Assembly (NCBI GenBank): GCA_965541615.1
Contig: CBEUCJ010000004.1
Coordinates: forward strand, 91,071-155,070
Origin: an uncultured bacterium
Lineage (GTDB): Bacteria > Omnitrophota > Gorgyraeia > Duberdicusellales > CBEUCJ01
Direction of reading: 5' to 3'
Length of the DNA stretch: 64,000 nt
Shown here: positions 22,515 to 64,000 of the stretch, in pieces
Layout of the letters: every line of letters begins with the position of its first letter
Numbering within the stretch: the stretch's first letter is position 1
The notes under the pieces: model-generated
Told to the model about the DNA's origin: nothing
Databases searched by the model: none
Seen by the model: the letters and a program-made list of their open reading frames with translations, nothing else
Translations under genes and position numbers: made by a program

Positions 22515-22892
22515 ATGGCAAGAATAGCAGGAGTAGAACTTCCTAAAGATAAAAAAATTTGGGTGAGTCTAACTTACATATATGGAGTAGGTCCTTCTAA
22601 TACTTTTTGGATATTAAAAGAAGCAGGAGTAGACCCTAATAAAAGAACAAGAGATTTGACAGATGAAGAGGTAGCTAAAATCAGTCAGGTAATATCCAGT
22701 AAGTATAAAGTAGAAGGAGAGTTAAGAAGGGAGGTGGCTCAAAATATAAGGAGATTGATAGAAATAAACTGTTATAGAGGAATAAGACATAAAAAAGGTT
22801 TACCTGTAAGAGGACAAAGGACAAGATGTAATGCAAGGACTAGGAAAGGACCTAGACCTAGAGTTGGTGGGATTAAGAAAAAGGAAAAGTAA
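22515..22892 (+). CDS. rpsM: 30S ribosomal protein S13
   Basis: [14 protein letters not shown]... is canonical S13. Confidence 0.95.
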
Positions 22893-22894
22893 AT

Positions 22895-23296
22895 ATGGCT
22901 AAAAAGAGAGATAAATTTAAAAAGAAAAAAAAGAAAAAGTTAGATAAAGAGATAACAAGAGGTATAGCACATATTAAAGCAACTTTTAATAATACTATAA
23001 TTACCATTACAGATCTTAATGGAAATACTATTGTGTGGTCTTCAGGAGGAGTAGCAGGTTTTAAAGGAACAAAGAAATCTACTCCATATGCAGCTCAACA
23101 AGCAGCGAGTGATGCTGCAAAACGTGCTAAAGAATTAGGGTTAAAAGAAGTTGAAGTAAAGGTTAAAGGTCCAGGACCAGGAAGAGAGGCAGCTATTAGA
23201 GCTATACAAGCTGCAGGTCTTCAAGTAGTAGCTATAAAAGATGTAACACCTGTTCCTCATAACGGGTGTAGACCTCCTAAAAAAAGGAGAGTTTAA
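22895..23296 (+). CDS. rpsK: 30S ribosomal protein S11, with a poly-Lys N-terminal extension
   Basis: S11 core ([18 protein letters not shown]). Confidence 0.94.
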
Positions 23297-23298
23297 AA

Positions 23299-23931
23299 AT
23301 GGCAAGATACACAGGTCCAAAATGCAGATTATGTAGAAGAGAAGGGATGAAATTATTTCTAAAAGGGTTAAAATGCTATACTGAAAAGTGCCCTTTTACT
23401 AAAAGACCTTTTCCTCCAGGTCAACATGGCAGAACTCCTCGTCCTAAACCTTCTTATTATGCTTTACAGTTAAGAGAAAAACAAAAATTGAAGAGAATAT
23501 ATGGAATGTTAGAAAAGCAATTTAAAAGGTTTTTTAAGATAGCTGAAAGAAAGAAAGGTGAAACTGGAAGGATTCTAATTCAACTTTTAGAAAGAAGATT
23601 AGACAATGTAGTGTTCAGAGCATGCTTTGCAGTTTCACGTAATCAAGCTCGTCAAATAGTAAGACATGGATTTGTGTTAGTAAATGGTAAAAAAGTGGAT
23701 ATACCCTCTTATTTAGTTAGAGAAGGAGATAAAATAACTTTAAAAGAAAAAGAAAATATTAGGAATATGGTAAAAGACAACATAAAGATAATAACACGAG
23801 AAAGATCTGTACCCAATTGGTTAGAGGTAGATTTTGATAAGTTGGAGATAAAAGTATTAAGATTGCCAGAAAAAGAAGATACAGGTTTACCTATCCAAGA
23901 GCAATTGATTGTGGAATTATATTCAAAATAA
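23299..23931 (+). CDS. rpsD: 30S ribosomal protein S4, with a zinc-binding N-terminus
   Basis: [16 protein letters not shown]...C..C; S4. Confidence 0.94.
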
Positions 23932-23946
23932 GGAGGGATTAAAAAA

Positions 23947-24933
23947 ATGGGAGTAAGATGGAGAGATTTTCAGCTCCCTAAATTTTTAATGACAGATGAG
24001 AAGACGTATTCGGCAACTTATGGAAAGTTTATTGCCGAACCATTTGAGAGAGGTTATGGGGTTACTTTAGGAAATGCTTTGAGGAGGGTATTGCTATCTT
24101 CTATAGAAGGATGTGCAATTACAAGTGTAAAGATAGATGGTGTTTTACATGAATTTACTTCAATCCCTGGAGTTTTAGAGGATGTTACAGACATTATTTT
24201 AAATTTGAAAGGTGTAGTATTGAAACCTTTAAATAGGGAGCCTAAAAAATTAGTTATAGAAAGGAATAAGAAAGGAGAAGTAAGAGCTGGCGACATCAAA
24301 ACAGATGGTACAGTAGAAGTAGTAAATGTTGACCATTTAATTTGTACTCTGACAGAAGACAGACCTTTAAGGATAGAAATGGAAGCAGGCTTAGGAAGAG
24401 GATGGGTTCCTGCTGAGGAGAATAAAAGAGAAGACCATCCTATAGGAGTCATAGCTATAGATTCCATTTTTACACCTGTTAAGAAAGTAAACTTTAAAGT
24501 AGAAAATACTCGTGTAGGGAAAAGAACAGATTACGATAGACTAATCTTAGAAATTTGGACAAATGGTGCTATGGAACCAAAAGATGCTTTGTTACATGCA
24601 GTTACTATTTTAAGAAAACATTTAGATGTATTTACTCAATTAGGAACTGTAGAGGAGATTGAGGAAGAAGAAGAATTAACTCCTGAAGAGAAAGCTTTAT
24701 ATGAGAAGTTAAAAATACCTGTACAAGAGTTAGAGTTATCTGTAAGAGCAGCAAATTGTTTGAGAGAAGCAGAAATAAAAACTTTAGCAGACTTAGTAGA
24801 GAAAACTGAGCAGGAGTTATTGAGTTACAGAAATTTTGGGAAAAAGTCTTTGAATGAAATTGTAGAGTTATTAAAATCTATGGGATTGTCTTTAGGAATG
24901 AAGATAGATAGAGAAAAATTAAAGAAAGTATGA
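23947..24933 (+). CDS. rpoA: DNA-directed RNA polymerase alpha subunit
   Basis: Alpha N-terminal dimerisation domain and C-terminal HhH domain (LELSVRAANCL). Confidence 0.95.
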   Translation: MGVRWRDFQLPKFLMTDEKTYSATYGKFIAEPFERGYGVTLGNALRRVLLSSIEGCAITSVKIDGVLHEFTSIPGVLEDVTDIILNLKGVVLKPLNREPKKLVIERNKKGEVRAGDIKTDGTVEVVNVDHLICTLTEDRPLRIEMEAGLGRGWVPAEENKREDHPIGVIAIDSIFTPVKKVNFKVENTRVGKRTDYDRLILEIWTNGAMEPKDALLHAVTILRKHLDVFTQLGTVEEIEEEEELTPEEKALYEKLKIPVQELELSVRAANCLREAEIKTLADLVEKTEQELLSYRNFGKKSLNEIVELLKSMGLSLGMKIDREKLKKV

Positions 24934-25442
24934 GACACAGAAAAGATAAAATAAAGTTGTCTAGGAATTTAGGACACAGGAAAGCTTTGTTGAGGAATTT
25001 ATGTAAGTCTCTCTTTATATCAGAATCAATTACTACTACTAAAGCCAAAGCAAAAGCAGCTCAAAGATTAGCAGAAAGATTGATAAGTTTAGCTAAAGAA
25101 GATACTCTTTGGCATAGAAGGCAAGTTTACAAGGTTCTTTGTGATCATAAGTTAGTGAAAAGACTTTTTGATAAAATAGCACCAAGATTTAAGGATATAG
25201 AGGGAGGTTATACTAGAATCTTTAATTTAGGTTTTAGGAAAGGAGATGGAGCTCAATTAGTGATTTTAGAGTTAACAAAGAAAGAGATAAAAAAGAAGGG
25301 AAAACCTGCTGAGAAAAAGAAAGAAATAGAAAAACCTAAAGAAGTAAAAGAACACGAACCTAAAGCTTTAAGAAAGCAACCAAAGCCTACATTCAGAGAA
25401 TTTATAAAGAGAGTCTTTAAAAGAGAAAGAGATTCTCTTTAA
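24930..25442 (+). CDS. rplQ: 50S ribosomal protein L17, with a long Lys/Glu/Pro-rich C-terminal extension
   Basis: L17 core (MRHRK...GHRKALLRNL); end of the alpha operon. Confidence 0.93.
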   Translation: MRHRKDKIKLSRNLGHRKALLRNLCKSLFISESITTTKAKAKAAQRLAERLISLAKEDTLWHRRQVYKVLCDHKLVKRLFDKIAPRFKDIEGGYTRIFNLGFRKGDGAQLVILELTKKEIKKKGKPAEKKKEIEKPKEVKEHEPKALRKQPKPTFREFIKRVFKRERDSL

Positions 25443-26596
25443 TGAACCCTATTTTTAAGACCTTAAAGCCTTCTGAGACTCTAAAGATCTCTGCAAAAGC
25501 TAAAGAGTTAGCAAAGAAAGGATTAGATGTTATAAATCTTTCAGCTGGTGAACCTGACTTTGATACTCCTCAATATATAAAAGATGCTATAAAAAAAGCT
25601 TTAGATAATTCTAAAACTAAATACACCCCTGCCACTGGAATAAAAGAATTGAAAGAAGTAATTTCAGAAAAGTTTAAGAAAGAAAATTCATTAGAATACC
25701 CTCCAGATAATATTATAATAAGCTGTGGAGCAAAACATGTATTATTCAATATACTCTTTTGTCTTTTAGAAAAGAATGATAAAGTTTTAATAATTTCTCC
25801 TTACTGGGTGAGTTATCCAGCACAAATAATTCTTTGCAGAGGAACTCCTGTTATTTTAGAAACAGAATTTGAAGATAAGTTTGATATAGATTTAGAAGAG
25901 TTTAGAAGGAAAGTAAAAGGATGTAAAGCAGTTATAATCAATACACCTTCAAATCCTACAGGAAAGATTTTAAAAAGAGAAATTCTAGAGAAAATAGCAA
26001 AAGTTTGTTTAGAAGAAAAAGTTTACATTATAAGTGATGAGATCTATGAGAAAATAGTATTTGAATCTGAACATTTTAGTATAGGATCAGTTTCCAAAGA
26101 GATTTTGAAGATAACTTTTACTGTGAATGGGGTTTCAAAATCTTTTTCTATGACAGGTTTAAGGATTGGATGGTGTGGAGCTCCAATTTTAGTTAAAGAA
26201 CTATCTGTTCTTCAATCACACACTACTTCTAATCCTACAAGTATATCTCAGTATGGGGCTTTGGAAGCTTTGAGTAATCCTTTATGTAGAGATTTTTATG
26301 AATTTATAAGAAAAGAATTTAAAGAGAGAAGAGATGTGTTCTGCAGAGAGTTAGAAAAAATAGATAAGTTAGAAGTCTTTGTGCCAGAAGGTGCTTTTTA
26401 TGTATTTTGCAAAATTAAAAATACAGGTTTAAGTTCAAGTGAATTTTGTGAAAAACTGTTAGAAAAAGAATTAGTCTCTTGTGTACCAGGGGTAGTTTTT
26501 GGTAAAGAAGGATTTGTAAGATTTAGTTTATCTCAAAGTAGAGAAAGATTAAAAGAAGCAGCTGTTAGAATTAAAAATTTTATAGCTTCTTTATGA
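25442..26596 (+). CDS. Class I/II PLP-dependent aminotransferase (aspartate aminotransferase family)
   Basis: Fold-type I AT motifs. The PLP-lysine sits in NGVSKSFSMTGLRIGW. The ATG overlaps the rplQ stop. Confidence 0.85.
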   Translation: MNPIFKTLKPSETLKISAKAKELAKKGLDVINLSAGEPDFDTPQYIKDAIKKALDNSKTKYTPATGIKELKEVISEKFKKENSLEYPPDNIIISCGAKHVLFNILFCLLEKNDKVLIISPYWVSYPAQIILCRGTPVILETEFEDKFDIDLEEFRRKVKGCKAVIINTPSNPTGKILKREILEKIAKVCLEEKVYIISDEIYEKIVFESEHFSIGSVSKEILKITFTVNGVSKSFSMTGLRIGWCGAPILVKELSVLQSHTTSNPTSISQYGALEALSNPLCRDFYEFIRKEFKERRDVFCRELEKIDKLEVFVPEGAFYVFCKIKNTGLSSSEFCEKLLEKELVSCVPGVVFGKEGFVRFSLSQSRERLKEAAVRIKNFIASL

Positions 26597-27843
26597 CTAT
26601 AGCTGAAAAAATAATTTCTGCCCATTGTGGAAAAAAAGTAAGACCTGGAGATTTAGTTTTGTGTGAAGTAGATCTATGTTTTGGTCAGGATGGCACCTCA
26701 AACCTAATAATTGAAAGATTAGAAGAACTAAATGCAAATAAACTAAAAATAAGAAAAGCTTTTCTAGTTATAGACCATAACTCTCCTCCACCAAATGCAG
26801 ATGCTAGTAATATTCACAAAAGAATGCGTCAATTTGCAGAAAGATTTAGTTTGAGATTATTCGATGTAGGAGAGGGAGTCTGTCATCAAGTAGTATTAGA
26901 ATCAGGTGAAGTTCTGCCTTCAAGATTAATCTTAGGTGCAGATTCTCACACTACTACTCACGGAGCTTTAAATACTTTTAGTGCAGGAATAGGTTCTACA
27001 GATGCTGCTGTTTGTTTTTACACAGGAAAATTATGGCTGAAAACCCCTCCTACTATTAGGGTAGAGTTTGAAGGCAGTTTGAATAAAGGTGTTGAAGGAA
27101 AAGATATAGCTTTATATTTGTTAAAAATTCTGGGTTTAAATAGAGCAATTTATAAAGTTTTAGAATTTGGGGGAAAAAGCTTAAAAGAATTACCTCAGGA
27201 TTTTAGATTTACTATCTCTAATATGAGTGTAGAAGCAGGAGCAAAAGCTGCTATATTTGAGTATGATAGTATCACTGAAAGTTGGATAAAAACAGAATTA
27301 CTAGATTTTGATAAGTATGAACCTATTTTTCCAGATAAAAATGCAGAGTATTTAGAGAGAATAGTGATAAATCTTTCAGAAATAGAACCTATGGTAAGCA
27401 TTCCTCATTCACCTGCAAATGTTAAGAGAATTTCAGAGCTCAGAGATGTTAAAATAGATATGGGATTTATAGGGACTTGTACTAATGGAAGGTTAGAAGA
27501 TTTAAGAAGAGCTGCTAAGATTTTGAAAGGAAGGAAGATAAAAAAGAATGTAAGACTTATAGTTGCGCCTGCTTCAAAAAGAGTATTTGAAAAAGCTTTA
27601 AAAGAAGGGTTAATAGAAATATTCTTGCAAGCAGGAGCTGTAGTCTTTCCACCTGGATGTGGAGTATGTGTGGGAGCTCATGGAGGAGTTCCTGCAGATA
27701 GGGAAAATGTGATATCAACTTCTAATAGAAATTTTAAAGGAAGGATGGGGAATCCTAATAGTTTTATATATTTAGGTTCTCCTTCAACAGTTGCAGCTTC
27801 CTGTATAGAAGGTAAAATTACAGACCCTAGAAATTTTTTGTAA
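26593..27843 (+). CDS. Aconitase-family dehydratase large subunit. It is the archaeal-type short LeuC: 3-isopropylmalate dehydratase or homoaconitase large subunit.
   Basis: 416 aa. Fe-S ligand cysteines in GTCTNG and PPGCGVCVG contexts. Confidence 0.85.
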   Translation: MTIAEKIISAHCGKKVRPGDLVLCEVDLCFGQDGTSNLIIERLEELNANKLKIRKAFLVIDHNSPPPNADASNIHKRMRQFAERFSLRLFDVGEGVCHQVVLESGEVLPSRLILGADSHTTTHGALNTFSAGIGSTDAAVCFYTGKLWLKTPPTIRVEFEGSLNKGVEGKDIALYLLKILGLNRAIYKVLEFGGKSLKELPQDFRFTISNMSVEAGAKAAIFEYDSITESWIKTELLDFDKYEPIFPDKNAEYLERIVINLSEIEPMVSIPHSPANVKRISELRDVKIDMGFIGTCTNGRLEDLRRAAKILKGRKIKKNVRLIVAPASKRVFEKALKEGLIEIFLQAGAVVFPPGCGVCVGAHGGVPADRENVISTSNRNFKGRMGNPNSFIYLGSPSTVAASCIEGKITDPRNFL

Positions 27844-27865
27844 AAGAAAGGGAGGTGAGAATAAA

Positions 27866-28918
27866 ATGACACCTGATATTAGAGAGTTATTAAAATTAAC
27901 TATGGAGATGGGAGCTTCAGATCTACATTTGACAGAAAATACACCCCCTGTATTAAGGATAGATGGAAGACTTATGAGGACAGATTTCCCTCCTTTAACA
28001 AGAGAAGATACAAAAAGATTAGTTTACAGTATTTTAAATGATATTCAGAGAGAGACTTTTGAAAGAGACAAAGAATTAGATTTTTCACTTAACTTACCAG
28101 GATTAGATAGATTCAGAGTTAATGTCCATATTCAAAGAGGGAGTGTAGAAGCTGCTTTCAGAAGGATTCCTAGAGTTATTCCTTCTTTTGAGGAGTTAGG
28201 TTTACCTCCTATAGTTGAAGAGCTAGCTAGAAAACCTAATGGGTTGGTTTTAGTTACAGGTCCTACAGGAATGGGAAAGACCACAACTTTAGCTGCTATG
28301 ATAAATTTAATTAACAATGAGAGAGAATGTTTGATAATTACTATTGAGGATCCTATTGAATTCGTTCATACAAACAAAAAAGCTATTATAAAACAAAGAG
28401 AGGTGTATTCTGATACAAAATCTTTTGCTGAAGCTTTAAAAAGAGTCTTAAGACAAGATCCCGATGTTATAGTGGTAGGTGAAATGAGAGATTTAGAAAC
28501 GATATCTACTACTCTTACAGCAGCTGAAACTGGCCACTTAGTTTTAGCTACTCTTCATACTCCTGATGCTCCTCAGACAGTTCAAAGAATAATAGATGTA
28601 TTTCCTCCTCACCAACAACAACAAGTAAGATTACAGTTAGCTGATTGTATTCAAGGAGTAATCTCTCAATTACTTTTACCTAATGCTTCTGGAAGAGGAA
28701 GGGTTTTGGCTACAGAGATAATGATAGGCACACCTGCTATAAGAAATTTAATAAGAGAAGCTGAAATCGAACAAATCCCTACTCTTATTCAGACAGGCGC
28801 TCAATATGGAATGAGAACTATGGATAAATCTTTAAAAGAATTGTATAAAAAAGGATTAATTACTTATGAGGTAGCTATAAGTAAAGTAAAGAATATTCAG
28901 GAATTTAAAAATCTATGA
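27866..28918 (+). CDS. pilT: PilT-family (type IV pilus retraction-type) hexameric ATPase
   Basis: Walker [10 protein letters not shown], Asp box [10 protein letters not shown], Walker B VVGEMRD, His box ATLHT; 350 aa. Confidence 0.85.
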
Positions 28919-29418
28919 TATTTGAAGGAAGAGTATTTAAATTTGCAGATGATATAAACACAGATTACATAATTTCAGGTAAGAGAAAGTTTTCAATTTC
29001 AGACATTAAAGAATTGTGCAAATATTTATTTGAGGATATAAGACCTGGATTTTATGAAGCAGTAAAAAATACTCAAAGTATAATTGTAGCAGGTAAAAAC
29101 TTTGGATGTGGCTCATCTAGAGAACAAGCCCCTTTAGTTATAAAAGAAGTAGGGATAAAATGTATAATAGCAAAATCTTTTGCAAGAATATTTTATAGAA
29201 ATGCTTTTAATGTAGGTTTAGCTTTAATAGAGTGTGATACTGATTTGATAAGTGAAGGAGATTTCTTAAGAGTAGATTTAGAGAAAGGGCTCATTTTTAA
29301 TCAGACTCAAAATTCTCAAATAAAATTTAAGGAGTTGCCTAATTTTATGGAAAAGATTTTAAAAGAAGGTGGATTAATTAATCTCATTAAAAAATATGAA
29401 GGCTGGCCCCAAATATAG
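28915..29418 (+). CDS. Aconitase-family dehydratase small subunit (LeuD-type)
   Basis: 167 aa. The swivel-domain family motif FGCGSSRE (LeuD-type GSSRE). Confidence 0.85.
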
Positions 29419-30487
29419 AGTAACTCTGATTCCAGGTGATGGTATAGGACCTGAAGTAATAGAAGCAACTTTAATGTGTATCTCAGCTTTAGGAGTAGAT
29501 ATTGAATGGGAGAAAGTCTGTGCAGGCCAGAAAGCTTTAGAAAAATATGGGACGCCTTTGCCTGATTTTGTCTTAGAATCGATAAGAAAAAATAAGGTAG
29601 CTTTAAAAGGACCTATAATTACTCCTGTAGGAAAAGGATTTAGATCAGTAAATGTAGCTATAAGAAAAGAGTTAGATTTATATGCATGTTTGAGACCTGT
29701 TAAGTCTTTGGAGGGAGCGAGTTCTTTAAAGCCTAATATAGATATTGTAGTTATAAGAGAAAACACAGAAGGGCTTTATATAGGCATTGAATTTGAAGCA
29801 AAGAGTTCAGAGAGTTTGAAATTCATAAATTTTTTAAAAAATGAGTTTGATATTCATTTAAAAGAAGATTCTGGTGTTTCTTTAAAAGTAATATCTGAAA
29901 AAGCAAGTAGAAGAATAATCAAATTTGCTTTTGAATACGCTTTAAAGAATAATAAAAAGAAAGTTACCTGTGTCCATAAAGCAAATATTTTGAAATTCTC
30001 TGATGGACTTTTTTTAAAGGTTTTTTATGAGGTAGCTTCTGATTATCCTCAGATCATAGCAGAAGATGTTATCATAGATAATTTATGTATGCAGTTGGTG
30101 TTAAAACCCGAAAATTTTCAAGTTTTAGTTTTGCCTAATTTGTATGGAGATATAGTTTCAGACTTATGTGCAGGTTTAGTAGGAGGGTTGGGATTAGCTC
30201 CTGGAGCTAATATAGGAGACCAAATAGCAGTCTTTGAGCCTGTGCATGGAGCAGCTCCTAAATACCAAGGTCAATATAAAGTAAATCCTACTGCTACCAT
30301 TTTATCAGCAGTCTTAATGTTAGAATATTTGGGTGAGAAAACAGCTGCTTTAAGATTAGAAAAAGCTGTAAGAGAAGTTATAAGAGAAGGAAAATACCTA
30401 ACCTATGATTTTAAAAAAGACGTACCAGATTTTAAGCCAGTAAGTACCTTAGAAATGGCTCAAGCTATATGCAGAAAGTTGCAGTAA
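29396..30487 (+). CDS. Beta-decarboxylating dehydrogenase of isocitrate/homoisocitrate type
   Basis: [12 protein letters not shown]-terminus. The substrate loop [22 protein letters not shown] has the Ser-x-Asn of IDH/HICDH rather than IPMDH. The start overlaps the leuD-type gene by 23 nt. Confidence 0.8.
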
Positions 30488-31377
30488 TAGGAGCAGGACA
30501 AGTAGGTAGTCAAACGGCTTTCTGGTTACTCTTAAAAAAAATATGTGAAGTCGTACTCATAGATATCAGTGGAGATTTAGCTAAAGGTAAAGCTTTAGAT
30601 TTAGAAGATTTAGGAGCAGGTTTAGGTATAGATTTTAATGTTAAGGGAACAAAGGATTTCTCAAAAATTAGAGATTCTGATATTTGTATAATAACAGCAG
30701 GGTTGACTCGTAAACCTGGTATGAGTAGAGAAGATCTATTGAAAGAAAATAAAGAGATCGTAAAAAGGATCTGTAATAAGATTAAGAAATTAGCCCCTCA
30801 ATCTATAGTGATAGTAGTTACCAATCCTGTAGATATATTAACTTATTTTGTCTTTAAGAATTTAGGTTTCTCAAGAAACAGAATTTTAGGGATGGGAAGC
30901 AGTTTAGATACTTACAGATTAAAAAACTTAATTTCTAAAAGATTAAAAGTCTCTATAGATTGTGTTGAATCCTTAGTGATAGGAGAACATGGAAAATGTA
31001 TGGTCCCTCTTTTTAGTAGAACTTACGTAAATCTCATTCCTATAAGAGAAATATTAAATAAAAAAGATTTAGATAGTTTGAAAGAAGAACTTTTAGATAG
31101 AGGAAAAAGAATAGTAGAGAGTTTGGGTAAAGGAAGTGCGTATTTAGCCCCTGGATTTTGTTGTGCTGAGATAGTTGAGAGCATCTTACAGAATTTAAAA
31201 AGAACTATACCTGTAAGTTTTTATCTAGAAGGAGAATACAGAGCAAAGAATGTATGTATAGGAGTACCTTGTGTTATTTCAAGAAAAGGTGTCCAAAATG
31301 TTGTGGAGATAAAAATTGACAAAGAAGAAGAGCAATTGTTCTTAGAAGCAGTTCGATTTTTAAAAGAGTATACATAA
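30469..31377 (+). CDS. mdh: Malate (or L-lactate) dehydrogenase, LDH-like family
   Basis: Rossmann [10 protein letters not shown], then NPVD and a catalytic GEHG block. Confidence 0.85.
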   Translation: MQKVAVIGAGQVGSQTAFWLLLKKICEVVLIDISGDLAKGKALDLEDLGAGLGIDFNVKGTKDFSKIRDSDICIITAGLTRKPGMSREDLLKENKEIVKRICNKIKKLAPQSIVIVVTNPVDILTYFVFKNLGFSRNRILGMGSSLDTYRLKNLISKRLKVSIDCVESLVIGEHGKCMVPLFSRTYVNLIPIREILNKKDLDSLKEELLDRGKRIVESLGKGSAYLAPGFCCAEIVESILQNLKRTIPVSFYLEGEYRAKNVCIGVPCVISRKGVQNVVEIKIDKEEEQLFLEAVRFLKEYT

Positions 31378-31422
31378 CTTTTCATCAAAATTCACTAAAA
31401 ATCAAAGAGGAGGGAGGTGAGT

Positions 31423-31695
31423 ATGAAGAAGGTAGTTTTACCTGATTTAGGAGAAGGAATTGAAAAAGCTACTATAAGCTACTGGTATGCTAATGAAGGC
31501 GAACATGTAGAAGAAGGAGACAATTTAGTAGAAGTAGCTACAGAAAATTCAGTAATTAACATTCCTGCTCCGTGTTCAGGGATAGTAAGTGAGATATATT
31601 ATGGGGAAGGTGAGGTAGCCAGAGTAGGAGAGGTTATATGTGTAATAAGAGAAGAGACTGAAGACTTAGATTTAGGATTAGAATTTGAAGAATAA
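31423..31695 (+). CDS. Stand-alone lipoyl/biotinyl-attachment-like domain protein whose modifiable Lys is replaced by Asn
   Basis: Reads like an E2 lipoyl domain (VLPDLGEGIEKATISYWYANEGEHVEEGDNLVEV..IPAPCSGIV). The hairpin motif is ATENS instead of ETDKA. The ATG at 31423 follows a GGAGGGAGGTGA RBS; the track start 31417 is a GTG. Confidence 0.6.
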   Translation: MKKVVLPDLGEGIEKATISYWYANEGEHVEEGDNLVEVATENSVINIPAPCSGIVSEIYYGEGEVARVGEVICVIREETEDLDLGLEFEE

Positions 31696-35403: not shown

Positions 35404-36579
35404 ATGGCAAAGTTTTTAGACTATAAGAAAGAATTAGAGACAGCTGCAAAGTCTACTATACTAATACATGATCCAAAAGTCCTTATAAAACTAATAATAA
35501 GGATGATAGTAAGAAAAATAGAAGTCCTACATGCAGGAATATTTTTGTATGATAGAAAAAAATCTCTCTATATACTTACTGCTTCTAAAGGTAAGAGTCA
35601 ATTAAAACTGCCTGCAGGTTTTTTATCTGTAAGAAAAACTTCACCTTTAATAAGATTTTTTGTAGAAGACAGATGGGATTTATGGGGTAAAAAAATATTA
35701 ATTTACAAGAATATAAAGAACGCTCTTAAAAGAACTCGTGTAAAAAAAGATCCAGAGATTTTTAATTTTTACAAAAGGTTAAAAGAGCTTTTAGAGATAT
35801 ACCAATCTACAGCTTGTATACCAAGTTTTTTTAGAAAAGAGTTGATAGCTCTTTTGATACTAGGAAAAAAATTAGATAACACTGAATTTACAGAAGAAGA
35901 ATTAGAGTTTTTGGAGGCTTTAGCTTCAGATGTAGCTATGAGTGTTAGAAATGCTCAGCTTTTTGAAGATTTATTATCTCAAGTAGAAAAACACAGAAAG
36001 TTATTTTACAGTGTAGTTCAAGCTTTAGTAGAAGCTATAGATGCCAAAGATAGATACACAAGAGGACATACTCAAAGAGTTACTCAAGTTTCTTTAAGGA
36101 TAGCAGAGGAATTATTAAAAGATAAAAGGAGAAAATTTTCTCCTAATTTTTTGGAGAATCTAAAGATAGCAGCTCTTTTGCATGATATAGGTAAAATCGG
36201 AATCTCAGAGAGTATACTCAATAAAAATGGAAAGTTAACATCTAAAGAGAGAGAAGAGATAGAAAAACATCCTAACATAGGAGCTTCAATATTAGAACCA
36301 ATAGAAGAGTTAAAAGAGGTAATAGAAGGAGTTAAATACCATCACGAAAGATACGATGGTAAAGGTTATCCTGAAAAGTTAAAAAGGAAAAAGATCCCTT
36401 TGATAGCAGCTATAATAAGCTGTGCAGATGCTTACGATGCTATGAGTACAGACAGACCTTACAGAAAAGCTCTAACTAAAGAAGAAATATGCAAAGAGTT
36501 TATCTTGCAAAAAGGAAAACAATTTCATCCTCAAATAGCAAATATAGTTGTGAGGTTAATTAAAAAGAATAAGATTTAA
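35404..36579 (+). CDS. HD-GYP domain c-di-GMP phosphodiesterase with an N-terminal GAF-like sensory domain
   Basis: HD..LHDIGK..HHERYDGKGYP contains the GYP motif. Confidence 0.85.
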   Translation: MAKFLDYKKELETAAKSTILIHDPKVLIKLIIRMIVRKIEVLHAGIFLYDRKKSLYILTASKGKSQLKLPAGFLSVRKTSPLIRFFVEDRWDLWGKKILIYKNIKNALKRTRVKKDPEIFNFYKRLKELLEIYQSTACIPSFFRKELIALLILGKKLDNTEFTEEELEFLEALASDVAMSVRNAQLFEDLLSQVEKHRKLFYSVVQALVEAIDAKDRYTRGHTQRVTQVSLRIAEELLKDKRRKFSPNFLENLKIAALLHDIGKIGISESILNKNGKLTSKEREEIEKHPNIGASILEPIEELKEVIEGVKYHHERYDGKGYPEKLKRKKIPLIAAIISCADAYDAMSTDRPYRKALTKEEICKEFILQKGKQFHPQIANIVVRLIKKNKI

Positions 36580-39831: not shown

Positions 39832-40694
39832 AAATATGGATTAATGGCAGTTTATATGAGAAAGATGAAGCTAAAATCAGTGTTTTAGATCATGGATTTT
39901 TATATGGAGATGGTGTTTTTGAAGGAATAAGAGCTTATAACAGAGTAATCTTTAAGTTAGATGAACATTTAGATAGGTTATATAAGAACGCACATGTTAT
40001 CCTTTTGAAAGTTCCTTTAAAAAAAGAAGAGTTAAAAAAGGCAATTATAACTACCCTAAAAGCAAATAGATTAAAAGATGCTTACATAAGAGTAGTAGTT
40101 ACTAGAGGAGAAGGTGATTTAGGTTTAGATCCAAGAAAATGCAAAGATCCAAATGTAGTTATAATCACAGATAAAATAGTTTTGTATCCAGAGAAAATAT
40201 ATAAAGAAGGTTTAGAGATAATTACTGTGCCTACAAGAAGAAACTTATGTGAAGCTTTAAATCCAAATATTAAGTCTTTAAACTATTTGAATAATATATT
40301 AGCAAAAATTGAAGCTATAAATTGTGGGTACCAAGAGGCAATTATGCTTAACCAGCAAGGATTTGTGGCTGAATGCACAGGTGATAATATTTTTATAGTA
40401 AAAGATAATACTTTGGTTACTCCCCCTTCTTATTTAGGAGTTCTAAAAGGGATAACTGCTCAGACTGTAAAGGAATTAGCTAAAAAAATAAAAGTAAGTT
40501 ATTCAGAAGAAGTTTTTACAAGGTATGAACTCTATACAGCTCAGGAAGTATTTTTAACAGGGACAGCAGCTGAGATCGTCCCTGTAGTAAAAATAGATGG
40601 AAGAATAATAGGAGATGGCAAACCTGGTAAAGTTACTTTAAAGTTAATTAAAGAATTTCGTAAAATAGTAGAAAAAGAAGGGGTCAGATACTAA
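39828..40694 (+). CDS. ilvE: Branched-chain amino acid aminotransferase (fold-type IV PLP enzyme)
   Basis: Class IV AT pattern (GFLYGDGVFEGIRAY, EAIMLN..G.V.E). Confidence 0.85.
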   Translation: MKIWINGSLYEKDEAKISVLDHGFLYGDGVFEGIRAYNRVIFKLDEHLDRLYKNAHVILLKVPLKKEELKKAIITTLKANRLKDAYIRVVVTRGEGDLGLDPRKCKDPNVVIITDKIVLYPEKIYKEGLEIITVPTRRNLCEALNPNIKSLNYLNNILAKIEAINCGYQEAIMLNQQGFVAECTGDNIFIVKDNTLVTPPSYLGVLKGITAQTVKELAKKIKVSYSEEVFTRYELYTAQEVFLTGTAAEIVPVVKIDGRIIGDGKPGKVTLKLIKEFRKIVEKEGVRY

Positions 40695-41188
40695 TGCTTT
40701 GTGATATATGTGGTAAAAAAATAGCTACTGTTCATCTTACAGAGATTATAAATGGAGAAGTAAGAGAGCTCCATTTATGTGAAGATTGTGCTTTAAAAAA
40801 ATCCCAAGAAGTTCAACAACAGTTTTCTTTAGGAGATATATTAGCAGGTTTAGTAGAAGAGATAACTACACCTGAAGCAAGAGAGATTTTAAAATGCAAA
40901 AAATGTCAAATGACTTATCAGGAATTTAAAAAGATTGGGAGGTTAGGTTGTAGTAACTGTTATTTAGCTTTTAAAAAACAACTTTCACAACTTCTAAGAG
41001 CAATACATGGTTCAAATGCTCATCAGGGCAAAGTTCCTCCTACAAAGTTTAAGTTAAAAATAGATATAGAAATAGAAGAGTTAAAAAAAAGATTGAAAAG
41101 AGCAATAGAATTAGAAGAATTTGAAGAGGCAGCTAAAATAAGAGATAAGATAAAGGAGTTGGAAAAAAAGAAAAATGAATCTCAATGA
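40694..41188 (+). CDS. mcsA: McsA-like protein arginine kinase activator (two CxxC zinc fingers plus a UVR motif)
   Basis: CDICG...CEDC and CKKCQ...CSNC, then a C-terminal UvrB/C-like EEFEEAAKIRDKIKELE. Directly upstream of mcsB. Confidence 0.8.
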   Translation: MLCDICGKKIATVHLTEIINGEVRELHLCEDCALKKSQEVQQQFSLGDILAGLVEEITTPEAREILKCKKCQMTYQEFKKIGRLGCSNCYLAFKKQLSQLLRAIHGSNAHQGKVPPTKFKLKIDIEIEELKKRLKRAIELEEFEEAAKIRDKIKELEKKKNESQ

Positions 41189-42218
41189 TTTTTTAAAAAA
41201 GCCTCCTTGTTGGCTTAAAGAGAGTTCAGAATCTCAAAATATAGTAATATCTTCTAGAATAAGGATCGCCAGAAATTTAACAGATATTCCTTTCCCTCAC
41301 CGCGCTTCTTTAGCTCAAAAAGAAGAGATAATAAGAAGATTTTTAGAAGCAAAAGACAATGTAGAAAGATTTAAAGAAAGCGTATTTTTTAGAATCGATG
41401 AACTTTCTCATGTCGATAAACAGTTTTTGATCGAAAGGCATTTAATAAGTCCAGATTTAGCTCAGAATTCAAAAGGAGCAGCTTTACTAGTGACTTGTGA
41501 TGAATTAATTTCAGTAATGGTAAATGAAGAGGATCATTTTAGAATACAGATACTAAGTGCAGGAGCTCAATTAAAGAATTTATGGTATCAGTTAAACAGT
41601 ATAGATGATAAATTATCTGAAAAGTTAAATTTTGCTTTTTCTAAAGAATGGGGATATCTTACAGCTTGCCCTACAAATGTAGGAACAGGTTTAAGAGGCT
41701 CAGTTATGCTACATTTACCAGGATTGGTGTTATTAAAAAGGATAAATAAGGTTCTGCATGCTATCTCTAAATTGAGTTTTAATACAAGAGGTTTATTCGG
41801 TGAAGGCACTCAAGCTATAGGAAATCTATTTCAGATTTCTAACCAAATAAGCTTAGGACAGAGTGAGTCTGATATCTTAGATAATATTGAAGGAGTAATA
41901 AAACAAGTTACTGAGCAAGAGTTATCTGCAAGAGAACACTTATTAAAGACTCAAAGGATGTTTATAGAGGATAAAGTATGGAGAGCGTATGGAATTCTTA
42001 AAAATTCTAGAATAATAAATTCTCAAGAGGCTTTAGAATTGTTTTCTATGTTGAGATTAGGGTTAGATTTAGGTATAATAGAAAAAGTTAGTTACGCAGA
42101 TTTAAATGAATTGTTTTTAATTATACAGCCTGCTCACTTGCAAAAGAAAGAAGGAAGGATTTTGAGTGCTCAAGAGAGAGATATAAAAAGAGCAGAGTTA
42201 ATAAGGAGAAAGCTTTAG
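41175..42218 (+). CDS. mcsB: Protein arginine kinase McsB (ATP:guanido phosphotransferase family)
   Basis: Phosphagen-kinase catalytic motif [10 protein letters not shown](G/A)S. Confidence 0.88.
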
Positions 42219-42220
42219 AA

Positions 42221-44668
42221 ATGTTTAACAGATTTACTGAAAGAGCAAGGAAAGTAATTTTATTAGCTAAAGAAGAAGCCAAACGCTTCAACCATGATTA
42301 CATAGGTACTGAACACATTCTGTTAGGTCTAATTAAGGAATCTGAAGGAGTAGCTGTTGCAGTTTTAGAAAATTTAGGAGTTAATTTGAATGGATTAAAA
42401 AGAGAGATAGAAAAATACATACATCCTAATCCAAGTTCTGTACATATAGTAGGAGACATTCCTTTTACTCCCAGAGCAAAGAAAGCTTTAGAATTAGCAG
42501 CAGAAGAGGCACGCAACTTAGGGCATAGTTATATAGGTACTGAACATTTACTTTTAGGTTTATTAAAAGAAGGAGAAGGAATAGCTGCGCAGGTTTTAAA
42601 TGATTTGGGTGTAGATTTTCAGAAAGTAAGAACTGAAGTTATGAATCTCTTGGGATTTTCAACTGCGTCTAGTAGTTTTCCAGGTAGTCACAAAACGCAT
42701 GTTAAAACACCTGCTTTAGATGCATTTGGAAGAGATTTAACACAGTTAGCTAAAGAAGGCAAATTAGATCCAGTCATTGGCAGAGAGAATGAGATTCAGA
42801 GAGTAATGCAGGTCTTATGCAGAAGGACAAAGAATAATCCTGTTCTCTTAGGAGAAGCAGGTGTAGGAAAAACTGCTATTGTAGAAGGGTTAGCTCAAAG
42901 AATAATAAAAGGAGAAGTCCCTGAGTTATTAAAAAACAAAAGAATAGTCGCTTTAGATTTAGCTTTAATGGTTGCAGGTACAAAATACAGAGGACAATTT
43001 GAAGAAAGAATAAAAGCAGTTATGGAAGAGATAAAGCAAGCCAAAGATGTAATATTATTTATAGATGAGTTACATACCTTAGTTGGAGCAGGAGCTGCAG
43101 AAGGAGCAATAGATGCTTCAAATATTTTAAAACCTGCTCTATCTAGAGGTGAGATTCAATGTATAGGAGCTACTACTTTTGATGAGTACAGAAAACATAT
43201 TGAGAAAGATGCAGCTTTAGAAAGGAGGTTTCAGCCTATTTTTGTAGACCCTCCGACTGTAGAACAGACTATAGAGATATTAAAAGGGCTAAGAGACAGA
43301 TATGAAGCTCATCACAGAGTAAGGTTTTTAGATCAAGCTTTAGAATCTGCAGCCAAATTATCAGATAGATATATTTCAGGCAGATACCTTCCTGATAAAG
43401 CTATAGATTTAATAGATGAAGCAGGTGCACGTGCAAGACTAAGGGTTTTGACTCCTCCTCCAGAGATAAAGGAATTAGAAAATAAACTAGAACATATAAG
43501 AAAAGAAAAAGAAGCCTACATAAAACAACAAAATTTTGAAGCAGCTGCTAACTTAAGAGACGAAGAAAGAGCTATACGCATGAAGTTAGAAGCTTTAAGA
43601 AAAGAATGGTCTCAAAAGAGAGAATCACTGATACCCACAGTTACTGCTGAAGACATAGCAAAGATAGTTTCTCAATGGACAGGAATTCCTTTATACAGAT
43701 TAGAAGAGACTGAGTCTGAAAAATTACTAAGGTTAGAAGAGGAAATATCCAAAAGAGTAGTAGGACAATCAGAAGCTATAAAAGCTGTAGCCAGAGCTAT
43801 AAGAAGATCAAGAGCAGGAATTAAAGATCCTAAAAGACCTATAGGTTCTTTTATATTTTTGGGCCCAACAGGTGTAGGTAAAACTTTATTAGCAAGAGCT
43901 TTAGCTGAGTATATGTTTGGAAATGAGGAAGCATTAATCCAAATAGATATGTCTGAATACATGGAGAAATTTAATGTTTCAAGATTAATTGGAGCTCCTC
44001 CTGGATATGTAGGATATGAAGAAGGAGGCCAGTTAACAGAAGCTGTAAGAAGAAAACCTTATAGTGTAGTACTTTTAGATGAGATAGAGAAAGCTCACCC
44101 TGATGTTTTCAATCTTCTTTTGCAAATATTAGAAGATGGTAGGCTTACAGATAGTTTTGGAAGAAAGGTAGATTTTAGAAATACAATTTTAATCATGACT
44201 TCAAATGTAGGAGCTGAGATTATAAGAAAAAAAGGTTCCTTAGGTTTTAAAGTATTAAAAGAAGAGATTTCTTATGAAGAGATGAAAGAAAGGTTGTTAG
44301 AAGAAGTTAAGAAAACATTTAAGCCTGAATTTTTAAACCGAATAGATGAGATAATTGTTTTTAGACCTTTAAATAAAGAAGATTTGGAGAAAATTGTAGA
44401 TATTGAGATGAGCTTTGTGAAAGAGAGATTAAAGGAAAAAGGAGTAGATATCGAGTTAACAAAATCAGCTAAAGAGTTTTTAATCGAAAAAGGCTTTGAT
44501 CCTGCTTTTGGAGCCAGACCCTTAAAAAGAGTAATTCAAAGGTATATAGAAGATTCATTAGCAGAAGAGTTAATAGCTCAGAAGTTTTCACACAAAACCC
44601 CAGATCCTCAAACCAAACTCATCAAGATAAAAATAGATTTTAAAGATAATAAGATTATATTTGAATGA
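42221..44668 (+). CDS. clpC: ATP-dependent Clp protease ATP-binding subunit ClpC
   Basis: Two Clp-N repeats, two AAA+ modules ([16 protein letters not shown]), an internal UVR motif and a ClpP-docking loop region. Confidence 0.93.
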
Positions 44669-45453
44669 GATGCTTGGTTTTTTTAGTATCTTTCTTTTTA
44701 ACTTTACCTGTCTGGAGTCTTCAATTTAGAGGTGTCTTTAAAGAAAAGATTTTAGAATTTAATTTAGATTCTGAGAAAAATCCTTTTGTAAAAGGAAGAA
44801 TAATCTTTGATTCAGAAAAAATAAAAATCCCTTTTATAAAAGCTTCAAATTTTAAATTTTCAGGAATCTTTAATACACAGACTAAAAGCTCAAAATTTTA
44901 TTTAGAATTTGAAGATATAGATTTGAAAATTATAGCTTTCCTTTTTGGATTTACAGAGAAAGAGTTAGAAAATTTTAATTGTAAAGTAACAGGTTCTCTA
45001 AAATTAGATTCTAATACTTTAGAGGTTTTTCTTAAAAGTAAAGAATGTTTAATTTTTGGAGACAAGTTTAAATATGCTCAAATTGCAGGGAGAGGAGATA
45101 TTGAAAATTTTATTTTAAAAGACTCTTATTTGGAAAAGCCAGATGGTACCAAAATTTTTATTAAAGGTGTAGTAAATTTTAAAAAAATAAAAGATTCAAT
45201 AAGAAGTTTACATTTAGAATCAGAAAGCATAGAGTTTTTAAATAATTTTAAATTGACTTCTTATCAAGGCAGAATATATTTTTTAAAAAAGGGAGAGAAA
45301 GGAGATTTAGAGATTTGGCCTATATTCTATGATGATCAAAAAAATCTCCAAAGTTGGGAATTTAGATACAAGTTAGATGAAAGTGATTTTTTAAGAATAA
45401 GATTTAGCAATCAAGACACTATTTTAGGATTTGAGAAAAGATTTAAATTTTAA
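44665..45453 (+). CDS. Hypothetical secreted protein with an N-terminal signal peptide. It is translationally coupled between clpC and mlaE.
   Basis: [18 protein letters not shown] is a signal peptide. There are no recognisable family motifs. It overlaps both neighbours by ATGA/TAATG. Confidence 0.55.
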
Positions 45454-50713: not shown

Positions 50714-52591
50714 ATGGAAAGCTTAGAGTTTTTAAAGAATAAACTTTCAGAAAATGATTTTAAAAAAATATCTTCTTTAGAAAACCCTTATCTTAATGAT
50801 TTCCTTCATTTTTACATAAAGCTTTGCAATCCTACTAAGATTTATGTTCTTACCAAACAAGAAGATATAGATTTTATAAGAAAAGAAGCTTTAAAAAACA
50901 AAGAGGAATTTGAGCTTAAAATAAAAGGTCATACAGTCCATTTTGATGGAATAAAAGATCAAGCCAGAGATAAAAAAAATACAAGATTTTTACTTCCTAA
51001 AGGAGAGGAATTGGAAAATATAAATTTCTTAGAAAGAGAAAAAGGTTTGAATGAGGTTTACTCGCTTTTAAAAGATAGTATGAAAGATAGAGCTTTATAT
51101 GTGTGTTTTTTCCTATTAGGACCTAAGAATTCAAAATTCTCTATTCCTTGTGTTCAATTAACAGATTCTGCTTATGTAGCTCATAGTGAATTTATTCTTT
51201 ACAGGACAGGTTTTGAGGAGTTTAAAGATTTAAAGAATAAGAACGATTTTTTTAAATTTGTACATAGTCAAGGAGAGTTAGATGAGAATAAGAATAGTAA
51301 GAATATAGAAAATCGTAGGATTTATATAGATTTAGTGACAAACACTGTACTGAGTGTAAACACCCAATATGGAGGAAACACCATAGGATTAAAAAAGTTA
51401 GCTTTAAGATTAGCTATTAAGAAAGCTTCAAAAGAAGGATGGTTGGCAGAGCACATGTTTATAATGGGAGTAAAAGGTGTTGGTAACAGGGTAACTTATT
51501 TTACAGGAGCTTTTCCTTCCATGTGTGGAAAGACATCCACAGCTATGTTAAAGACTGAATCTATAATAGGAGATGATTTAGCTTATTTGAGAAATGTAGA
51601 TGGAAAAGTTAAAGCTATGAATCCTGAAAAAGGAATGTTTGGTATTCTTCAAGGTATAAATGAAAAAGATGATCCCATTTTGTGGAAAGTTTTGCATTCA
51701 GAGGGAGAGATAATCTTTTCAAATGTCCTTGTAACAGATAACAAAGAAGTATGGTGGCTTGACAAAACACCTGAAGTTCCAAAAAAAGGGAGAAATTTTT
51801 CTGGAAATTGGTTTTTAGGTAAAAAAGATAAAGAAGGAAAAGAAATTCTACCTGCTCATAAAAATGCTAGGTTTACTTTAGATTTAAAATTGTTAGAAAA
51901 TGCAGACCCTAACTTAGATAATCCTGAAGGAGTAGAAATAAAAGCTATATTATATGGAGGCAGAGATTCAGATACTTGGCCACCAATTGAACAAGCTTTT
52001 GATTGGGTGCACGGAGTAATTACTAAAGGAGCTTCTCTAGAGTCAGAGACTACAGCTGCTACTTTAGGAAAAGAAGGTGAAAGAAAATTTGACCCCTTTT
52101 CTAATTTAGATTTTTTATCTGTTCCTATAGGCAAATATATAGAGATGTATTTAAAATTTGGAGAAGGTTTAAAAGAAAAACCTTTAATATTTTCTGTGAA
52201 CTATTTTCTTAAAAATAAAGATGGCAAATTTCTAAACTCTAAAGAAGACAAACTCATATGGTTAAAGTGGGCTGAGTTAAGAGTACACAGAGAAGTGAAA
52301 GCAATTAAAACACCAACAGGATTCATTCCTAAATATGAAGATTTAAGAAGATTATTTAAAGAGTTTCTAAAAAAAGATTATTCTGAGTCTGAATATATTG
52401 AGCAATTTAGTTTAAGGACGAAGGAAAATCTTTCTAAGATCGATAGGATAATAAATATTTATAAAAAACTTTCAAATATTCCTCAAATTCTTTTTGAGGT
52501 ATTAGAAGCACAAAAAGAAAGAATCTTAAAAGCTAAAGAGATTTTTGGAGATTACATTTCTCCATTTAAATTTTCTGAGTGTGAAATATAA
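50714..52591 (+). CDS. pckG: Phosphoenolpyruvate carboxykinase (GTP)
   Basis: GTP-PEPCK motifs (YGGNT, kinase-1a AFPSMCGKTSTAM, IIGDDLAYL); about 625 aa. Confidence 0.85.
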   Translation: MESLEFLKNKLSENDFKKISSLENPYLNDFLHFYIKLCNPTKIYVLTKQEDIDFIRKEALKNKEEFELKIKGHTVHFDGIKDQARDKKNTRFLLPKGEELENINFLEREKGLNEVYSLLKDSMKDRALYVCFFLLGPKNSKFSIPCVQLTDSAYVAHSEFILYRTGFEEFKDLKNKNDFFKFVHSQGELDENKNSKNIENRRIYIDLVTNTVLSVNTQYGGNTIGLKKLALRLAIKKASKEGWLAEHMFIMGVKGVGNRVTYFTGAFPSMCGKTSTAMLKTESIIGDDLAYLRNVDGKVKAMNPEKGMFGILQGINEKDDPILWKVLHSEGEIIFSNVLVTDNKEVWWLDKTPEVPKKGRNFSGNWFLGKKDKEGKEILPAHKNARFTLDLKLLENADPNLDNPEGVEIKAILYGGRDSDTWPPIEQAFDWVHGVITKGASLESETTAATLGKEGERKFDPFSNLDFLSVPIGKYIEMYLKFGEGLKEKPLIFSVNYFLKNKDGKFLNSKEDKLIWLKWAELRVHREVKAIKTPTGFIPKYEDLRRLFKEFLKKDYSESEYIEQFSLRTKENLSKIDRIINIYKKLSNIPQILFEVLEAQKERILKAKEIFGDYISPFKFSECEI

Positions 52592-63159: not shown

Positions 63160-64000
63160 CTAATTGAGACTTAAAAAATTTAATATCCCCCACAAACAAG
63201 CCAAAAAAGGAAGGAGCCAACAACTTAAGAAAGGATTTAGAAAACCTGTTTTTCCCAAAGCCACACTTATGCTTAAAGCTACATAGAATACAAATGAACA
63301 CAACACACTCATTCCTAAATTTGAAAGAAGATAAGTAGTTTTTTTAATTCTCAAGAAAATCCCTAAAAAAGTAAGGTTTAAAAATATAGGTAAAAAACAT
63401 ATTACATATTTCTTATTTAACTCTGCAATTAAGTTTTTGGCTATCTCATAAGCATTTATTTTTTTAAAATACTTTATTTTTTCTTTTAATATTTTAGTAG
63501 GTAAAATTTCAAAAGGTCCACTCCTTAACATTAACTTTTGAGGAGGAGGAAGATGTAATTTTAGTTCATTGTAAAAGAAGATAGGTTTTTCAGAGGAGAA
63601 AAGATCAGAAACACTTACTTTCTTTAATATCCATTTTTTATCTTTATAGATTCCTTCTTGAGCATATATTTTTTTAAAATTATTCTGATCAAAGACTAAG
63701 ATACCTTTTGCTAAGTTTTTTTTAAGATGAAATTCACTGATTATGATTGCCTGTCCTTTTTCACTGAAATTCATGATGTCTTTAAGAACTTGTTTTTTCT
63801 GGATCTTTTGCGAGAAGATTGTAGACTTTAATTCTTTGTATTTTTTTGAGATTTCTGGTAGCCAATATTCACAAAAGTAAAGAGAAAATAAAGAGAGCAA
63901 AAAAAGAAAGATTATAATAGGAATAATTATTTTAAAATTACTAATCCCAAAGCTCCTCAAAGCTAATATTTCATTATTTTTATTTAATTCAGTTAAACAA
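63160..64000 (-). CDS. LptF/LptG-family (YjgP/YjgQ) permease, C-terminal part. The gene continues beyond the window edge.
   Basis: Multi-TM protein with a periplasmic beta-jellyroll-like middle region. The reading frame is open through nt 64000 on the - strand; the track's M at 63960 is an internal TTG. Convergent with alr. Confidence 0.7.
   Translation of the reverse strand, partial: CLTELNKNNEILALRSFGISNFKIIIPIIIFLFLLSLFSLYFCEYWLPEISKKYKELKSTIFSQKIQKKQVLKDIMNFSEKGQAIIISEFHLKKNLAKGILVFDQNNFKKIYAQEGIYKDKKWILKKVSVSDLFSSEKPIFFYNELKLHLPPPQKLMLRSGPFEILPTKILKEKIKYFKKINAYEIAKNLIAELNKKYVICFLPIFLNLTFLGIFLRIKKTTYLLSNLGMSVLCSFVFYVALSISVALGKTGFLNPFLSCWLLPFLACLWGILNFLSLN

Follow-up and report, generated by a model that had tools for sequence, protein, structure and literature searches.

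Why should the gene for a pilus retraction motor lie between the two subunit genes of a metabolic enzyme? The question is raised by a 64-kb stretch of DNA from an uncultured bacterium of the phylum Omnitrophota (hereafter the window; its positions on the source contig are given in the header), in which pilT separates the genes for the large and small subunits of a dehydratase of the aconitase/isopropylmalate (IPM) isomerase family. We consider it fairly probable that a canonical pilT was inserted once, anciently, into a housekeeping operon, and that the adjacency is historical and goes with constitutive co-expression.

Locus layout and identity of PilT

The gene string around pilT and its neighbourhood comprise the following features.

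22515-25442, plus strand: ribosomal proteins S13, S11 and S4, RNA polymerase alpha (rpoA, 23947-24933) and L17 (24930-25442), the upstream end of the gene string (precomputed Pfam calls on the identical contig)
25442-26596, plus strand: class I/II (aspartate-type) aminotransferase, 384 aa (PF00155, 236 bits; top NCBIfam match aspartate aminotransferase, 409 bits, below the equivalog cut-off of 550)
26593-27843, plus strand: large subunit of the aconitase/IPM-isomerase family, 416 aa (PF00330, 330 bits; NF001614, 529 bits; Fe-S ligand motifs GTCTNG and GCGVCVG)
27844-27865, plus strand: 22-nt spacer aagaaagggaggtgagaataaa between the large-subunit gene and pilT, with the Shine-Dalgarno sequence GGGAGGTGA ending 8 nt 5' of the PilT ATG
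27866-28918, plus strand: PilT, type IVa pilus retraction ATPase, 350 aa (TIGR01420, 484 bits; catalytic motifs and AIRNLIRE intact)
28915-29418, plus strand: small subunit of the aconitase/IPM-isomerase family, 167 aa (TIGR02087, 190 bits; start overlapping the PilT stop)
29396-30487, plus strand: isocitrate dehydrogenase (IDH)-type beta-decarboxylating dehydrogenase, 363 aa (PF00180, 357 bits; 23-nt overlap with the small-subunit gene)
30469-31377, plus strand: malate dehydrogenase (MDH; lactate/malate dehydrogenase family), 302 aa (NF004863, 365 bits, above the cut-off of 283; 19-nt overlap with the IDH gene)
31417-31695, plus strand: free-standing lipoyl-domain protein (PF00364, 58 bits), the next member of the conserved block, kept downstream in relatives
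35404-36579, plus strand: HD-GYP phosphodiesterase (PF13487, 116 bits; PF01966, 78 bits), neighbourhood context only

The order, coordinates and family assignments that a preliminary description of this DNA gave for the three central open reading frames (ORFs) were confirmed, and the spacer with its ribosome-binding site and the ATGA overlap can be read directly from the sequence. The large-subunit gene ends with TAA at 27841-27843, and the PilT stop and the small-subunit start share ATGA at 28915-28918. From rpoA onward the junctions measure -4 nt (rpoA to L17), -1 nt (L17 to aminotransferase), -4 nt (aminotransferase to large subunit), +22 nt (large subunit to PilT), -4 nt (PilT to small subunit), -23 nt (small subunit to IDH) and -19 nt (IDH to MDH). 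A consensus scan of the operon found no excess of promoters or terminators (26 promoter-like sites versus 44 expected; 4 terminator-like sites versus 5 expected), such a scan being uninformative in this AT-rich DNA. As the genes are packed with overlaps and show no detectable internal signals, they are probably read as one long transcript. Further downstream, MDH and the lipoyl protein are separated by a non-coding gap of about 40 nt (31378-31416). Relatives have two genes at that place (for example L037:10651-12621), one for a protein like dihydrolipoamide dehydrogenase (Pyr_redox_2 and a dimerisation domain) and one for a lipoate-protein ligase (PF21948).

Six contigs, from independent assemblies of different samples (JGI, ENA and Logan), carried an identical PilT in the same gene order. 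GC content was flat over the PilT region, at 0.31 to 0.33, in a window of about 30% GC.

PilT scored 483.8 bits against TIGR01420 (cut-off, 319.1) over profile positions 2 to 341 of 343, which places it in the PilT/PilU family. It aligned end to end with the solved PilTs of Geobacter (5zfq and 6ojx, 414 bits), Aquifex aeolicus (2ewv and 2gsz) and Pseudomonas aeruginosa (3jvv), at 375 to 415 bits, and belongs to the same length class. In this alignment the gene product is complete, as previously noted, and the Walker A (GPTGMGKTT), Asp, Walker B and His boxes are all intact, identifying a secretion ATPase. The AIRNLIRE motif in the C-terminal domain (residues 290-300), which the solved PilTs share, marks it as PilT proper rather than PilU, and PilT structures scored 351 to 415 bits versus 285 bits for PilU (9n32). 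Its Walker A (residues 132-140) differs from the GPTGSGKST of most PilTs in having Met and Thr for Ser, the lysine being kept; otherwise only the genomic context sets it apart from the solved proteins. Most relatives with pilT between the subunit genes have Met at the fifth position, and Ser is found in a clade that has pilT without the dehydratase and in outgroups. The catalytic motifs were conserved in 37 plus 14 Omnitrophota-type PilTs and in 45 other PilTs, to the same extent in outgroups as in the groups with both subunits and with PilT only. No position was fixed in Omnitrophota yet different elsewhere. The nearest named PilTs all came from Omnitrophota. Judged by its sequence, the protein is a canonical pilus-retraction ATPase, with retraction activity predicted.

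Gene order in relatives and history of the proposed insertion

A PilT scan of one genome per species (GTDB) yielded 80 loci, whose flanks were annotated against the window proteins. The order rpoA-L17-aminotransferase-large-PilT-small-IDH-MDH was kept in 19 species-level Omnitrophota genomes, with PilT identities of 69 to 78%; the complete Ca. Velamenicoccus archaeovorus LiM genome (L037) is among them. The synteny comparison proposed in the preliminary description thus found the order conserved in these genomes and also in 18 metagenome contigs (see below). Median identity to the window was 72% for PilT, the highest in the block, followed by rpoA (63%), IDH (60%), the small subunit (55%), the large subunit (50%), the aminotransferase (44%) and MDH (42%). 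The block also conserves lipoamide dehydrogenase, lipoate ligase, the lipoyl protein, monogalactosyldiacylglycerol (MGDG) synthase, lipid A acyltransferase and sometimes HD-GYP.

Fourteen further genomes, forming one clade (200/200 bootstrap), have rpoA-L17-aminotransferase-PilT-IDH-lipoyl protein, without both dehydratase genes and MDH. In a subgroup of this clade (L019:8074-9288, and also L022, L026 and L028), the Iso_dh-family protein that follows PilT is longer (405 aa) and more divergent (146 to 166 bits to the window IDH versus 444 to 490 in other members), which may reflect a replacement or a change of function. A separate lineage, L029, retains a large-subunit ORF, PilT, IDH and MDH, and its small-subunit gene is gone. 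Two of the three Fe-S cysteines of that ORF (L029:5717-6982, 421 aa) are lost (GCGVCVG to GYGPSNG), and further motifs are altered (GADSHT to GTAKFVST; SNRNFKGRMG to GDDNSRGVMG), next to an intact PilT at L029:6995-8044. By these substitutions, L029 presents the same dehydratase decay in progress; either its large subunit has been retained as a pseudo-enzyme for some other reason, or the gene has begun to decay and has so far acquired no frameshift.

The remaining 47 loci, more distant, lack the operon genes. In L043-L086 (Sumerlaeota, Actinomycetota, Firmicutes, Deltaproteobacteria), a PilB-sized paralogue mostly lies just upstream of PilT. In L039 and L040, PilTs of the same clade as the window protein lie amid sugar epimerases, a lytic transglycosylase and glycosyltransferases, with no pilus genes at those loci. 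L040 carries two tandem PilT-family genes (L040:5891-8044; 341 and 518 bits to the window PilT) between glycosyltransferase/CBM9 and TPR genes, possibly a PilT-PilU-like pair in a lineage with an Omnitrophota-type-clade PilT. Several block-bearing loci (L035, DYOU01000005.1; L011-L013, L016, L024, L028 and L042) carry titles such as 'Candidatus Elulimicrobium sp.', 'Planctomycetales' or 'Planctomycetia', 'Candidatus Elulimicrobium' being placed by NCBI in the Patescibacteria group, and L039, which lacks the block and has a PilT of the same clade, is titled 'Desulfobacterales'. The taxonomic labels of these metagenome-assembled genomes look inconsistent with their gene content.

A scan of metagenomes with the large subunit provided a sample unbiased as to PilT, in which contigs with room downstream were counted. 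PilT lay next to the large subunit in 18 of about 26 Omnitrophota-type contigs, and all of those 18 that reached far enough upstream had the Omnitrophota-type operon context. Seven or eight contigs (L097, L108, L109, L112, L119, L131, L135 and probably L096) showed the Omnitrophota-type operon with adjacent subunits and no PilT. In about 32 outgroup contigs the large-small(-IDH) genes were adjacent, without the rpoA or aminotransferase context, which indicates that the large-small-IDH module is older and that the PilT insertion is derived. The PilTs of this locus formed one clade relative to PilTs from canonical contexts (81 to 85 of 100 neighbor-joining bootstrap replicates), consistent with a single insertion followed by vertical descent.

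The PilT-less operon loci likewise formed one clade (197/200 bootstrap). In unrooted trees of rpoA+L17+aminotransferase and of aminotransferase+IDH, this clade stood beside the PilT-bearing L102 and L106. Secondary loss of pilT in these loci would follow from an unbootstrapped large-subunit tree, but the bootstrapped and independent-marker trees do not fix the root; the clade is either a pre-insertion lineage or the product of a secondary excision.

Readings of the adjacency

We propose that the middle gene is a canonical pilT whose product would act as a hexameric ATPase retracting type IVa pili (T4aP) encoded elsewhere in Omnitrophota genomes, presumably including this one. Early in the phylum, it would have been inserted once into an existing aconitase-large/aconitase-small/IDH module at the tail of the S13-S11-S4-rpoA-L17 operon, and tight packing would then have kept the order. 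Within one long housekeeping transcript, ribosomes would start on pilT at its own strong ribosome-binding site and re-initiate on the small-subunit gene at the ATGA overlap; the outcome would be a constitutive, growth-linked retraction motor. The adjacency itself is unlikely to be mechanistic, since PilT persists without the dehydratase and the dehydratase operon exists without PilT. A specific link between PilT and aconitase is not needed either, because every combination exists in the same operon frame and because the block conserves plainly unrelated genes. Co-expression of the three genes, which the preliminary description had regarded as forced, remains the natural reading of the junctions; the coupling to metabolism that it offered as one possibility is not required, given that PilT and the dehydratase each occur alone.

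Several points weigh against this proposal. We infer both the single transcript and the translational coupling from the sequence. The exact 4-nt overlap between PilT and the small subunit recurs in 10 of the 19 relatives (the remaining gaps are short), and the large subunit fell to about 50% identity without the order being broken; beyond mere inertia, both might be signs of selection for co-expression. T4aP genes were not found within the window in a search that ran Pfam on the longer ORFs (100 aa or more) of 1-13.5 kb and 25.4-64 kb and used precomputed Pfam calls for 17.9-38.9 kb; between 13.8 and 17.8 kb, small ORFs were called ribosomal by size and order only. The lack of pilus structural genes noted previously was thereby borne out. 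The placement of the PilT-less operon clade also differed between trees: it was nested in the unbootstrapped large-subunit tree and sister to the rest in the bootstrapped tree of both subunits, in which the AT-rich window sequence was itself misplaced on a long branch.

It is also conceivable, if rather unlikely in our judgment, that the adjacency is adaptive, with retraction co-regulated with, or tied stoichiometrically through translational coupling to, the aconitase/IDH/MDH module. A host-dependent cell could thereby match retraction, and with it prey or host contact, to its carbon and energy status. The order has been held with very tight junctions over a deep divergence (66 to 78% identity for PilT, about 50% for the large subunit), PilT stays beside the aminotransferase and IDH after loss of the dehydratase, an HD-GYP signalling gene recurs in the block, and the Omnitrophota lifestyle is predicted to be pilus dependent (PMC10066038). 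However, large-PilT-small, PilT alone and large-small alone all exist, the same PilT lineage occurs in unrelated contexts (L039 and L040), PilT has neither an extra domain nor a lineage-specific residue, and clearly unrelated genes are conserved in the block as well. The coupling of motility to metabolic state that had been suggested for this locus is thus possible and not required. The proposed connection to the HD-GYP enzyme is weak: five relatives do have an orthologue in the block, but PilT carries no c-di-GMP-binding domain.

A related version, in which the placement itself was selected, seems to us unlikely. The motor would then be made in fixed proportion to the ribosomal/RNA polymerase operon and the aconitase-IDH-MDH module, with PilT translation priming that of the small subunit. 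If this were true, growth and carbon status would directly set retraction capacity, and with it contact with prey or host, with no regulator devoted to the task. It would be a simple operon-level metabolic control of the pilus motor.

The preliminary description had also raised the possibility that this PilT is an orphan serving something other than a pilus, which we now consider very improbable. Such a protein might drive a different secretion or uptake machine, or act on DNA. The 64 kb in which no pilus gene was found would fit an orphan role, as would the absence of pilB or pilC next to this clade's PilTs in the loci examined and the very strong retention of PilT (72% median identity, the highest in the block). 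Yet in well-studied bacteria such as Pseudomonas and Neisseria, pilT, alone or with pilU, commonly lies away from pilBCD and pilMNOPQ, in a small operon of its own. The locus resembles theirs in that the retraction ATPase gene stands apart from the assembly genes, and differs in that pilT interrupts the gene pair of an enzyme at the tail of the ribosomal-protein/rpoA operon. Furthermore, T4aP gene sets were reported in 135 of 141 Velamenicoccia, 19 of 23 Omnitrophia, 11 of 13 Aquiviventia and 38 of 40 Gorgyraia genomes and are expressed in LiM (PMC10066038). As T4aP sets are thus reported for nearly all Omnitrophota and as PilT, with AIRNLIRE and every catalytic box in the same pattern as in outgroup PilTs, has not diverged from canonical PilTs, a non-pilus role is unlikely.

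A recent rearrangement, a mis-assembly or a degenerate gene, for which no support was found, has practically no probability left, in view of the six independent contigs, the intact ORF, the uniform composition and an order shared by dozens of species, most relatives not having adjacent subunits with pilT elsewhere.

Open-literature searches combining pilT with Omnitrophota, aconitase or leuC/leuD returned no description of this gene order. Neither the text of PMC10066038 (with its supplements, searched for pilT and twitching) nor that of bioRxiv 10.64898/2026.06.07.730766 was found to place pilT in it, and PilT and aconitase entries were not found in the supplements of a 2025 omics paper. The arrangement therefore appears to be unreported, a lineage-specific synteny character made up of ordinary members of known protein families. 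It brings nothing new on pilus or aconitase biochemistry, and its value is comparative. It provides a clean case in which much of a phylum has kept an unrelated gene between the genes for the two subunits of an enzyme, and it cautions that genes in a conserved order need not interact, functionally or physically. Its four states (large-PilT-small, dead large-PilT, PilT only and large-small) are discrete and could serve as a genomic character in working out the deep relationships within Omnitrophota. Finally, the position of pilT in an operon linked to ribosomal protein genes and rpoA predicts that the retraction motor is made constitutively, in keeping with the predatory or episymbiotic lifestyle, dependent on pili, that has been proposed for these ultra-small bacteria.

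The flanking enzyme and the wider window

The dehydratase had been described as LeuCD-like and assigned to an amino-acid or 2-oxoacid pathway. The likeness holds at the level of the fold. Both subunits belong to the two-subunit archaeal-type branch of the aconitase/IPM-isomerase superfamily (NF001614, 529 bits versus a cut-off of 385; TIGR02086, 521 versus 410; TIGR02087, 190 versus 109), and the large subunit has the three Cys ligands of a 4Fe-4S cluster. The solved structure closest to it is the large subunit of Methanocaldococcus jannaschii homoaconitase (4kp2, 383 bits). The fold, the split into large and small subunits and the Fe-S ligand motifs are shared with both HacAB (4kp2, 2pkp) and LeuCD (4kp1/4nqy, 3vba) of that organism, against which the large subunit scored 383 and 343 bits and the small subunit 136 and 144 bits, respectively.

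The amino-acid pathway was not supported. Scores fell below the cut-offs of the LeuC/LeuD equivalogs (TIGR02083/TIGR02084; large, 440 versus 611; small, 180.5 versus 245.9), of the HacA/HacB equivalogs (NF040615 for the large subunit, 452 versus 550; NF040604 and NF040625 for the small subunit, 173 and 151 versus 230) and of all aconitase equivalogs as well. The substrate loop of the small subunit, IISGKRKF, was assigned to the IISG[RK]YKF subfamily, whose loop is found in 33 Omnitrophota relatives and most outgroup clusters, and is unlike both the LeuD loop (ILPARYLVY) and the HacB loop (IIPGPYLRT) of M. jannaschii. Within that loop (residues 19-26), the window differs from the IISGRYKF of all 33 other large-PilT-small relatives by a Tyr-to-Arg change, at a site that has been linked to substrate recognition in LeuD/HacB. 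Also unlike the M. jannaschii enzymes, this one has an IDH-type partner and pilT between its subunit genes. The top 24 PDB matches of the adjacent dehydrogenase were all isocitrate dehydrogenases (best, 6lky, 357 bits), compared with 265 bits for homoisocitrate dehydrogenase and at most 205 bits for isopropylmalate dehydrogenase.

Since the IDH-like dehydrogenase, malate dehydrogenase and aspartate-type aminotransferase adjoin it and a GTP-dependent phosphoenolpyruvate carboxykinase (GTP-PEPCK) is encoded in the window (50714-52591), the module is, on sequence grounds, of the tricarboxylic acid (TCA) cycle type (aconitase, IDH and MDH) and not of the leucine type, which corrects the annotation of the flanking enzyme. 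It agrees with the 'horseshoe' TCA cycle described for Omnitrophota, in which PF00330/PF00694 proteins were counted as aconitase (Seymour et al. 2023, PMC10066038). It agrees too with the fragmentary TCA cycle of 176 complete genomes, of which 165 had IDH and 166 had MDH (bioRxiv 10.64898/2026.06.07.730766), and GTP-PEPCK supplies oxaloacetate in the published reconstructions (PMC10066038; bioRxiv 10.64898/2026.06.07.730766). The IDH and MDH neighbours and these reconstructions suggest that the dehydratase functions as an aconitase.

The upstream part of the window runs rpoB-rpoC-S12-S7-EF-G-EF-Tu-S10-L3-L4-L2 ... L6-L18-S5-L15-SecY-Adk-Map-IF1-S13-S11-S4-rpoA-L17, and L17 leads unbroken into the aminotransferase, large subunit, PilT, small subunit, IDH, MDH and lipoyl protein. 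From 38 to 64 kb the content is housekeeping: Lol/Mla transporters, McsA-McsB-ClpC, RadA, IspD/IspF, GTP-PEPCK, three tRNA synthetases and others. Two ORFs of 100 aa or more lie off the plus strand: an antisense ORF overlapping rpoA, the one such case within 1-63157, and the last gene, LptF/G (63160-63960). GC skew is strongly positive across the window (0.16 to 0.41), start/stop overlaps are numerous, and the co-directional, tightly packed stretch is unusually long. At 40694-44668, an operon encodes a McsA-like protein (UVR motif), McsB (ATP:guanido phosphotransferase of the protein arginine kinase type) and ClpC, an arginine-phosphorylation protein-quality-control system best known from Firmicutes. 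It is followed by a 262-aa ORF (44665-45453) with no Pfam match at E <= 1e-5, directly upstream of MlaE/MlaF/MlaD-like transporter genes.

The HD-GYP assignment at 35404-36579 was upheld by its two domain matches and by HHERYDGKGYP, which conforms to the HHExxDGxGYP motif; phosphodiesterase activity is predicted. Orthologues (367 to 397 bits) lie within the conserved block of five relatives, between the lipoyl protein and MGDG synthase (L013:12337-13509, L017:12622-13788, L018:12236-13399, L021:12563-13726 and L025:9841-11016), a position that differs from that in the window.

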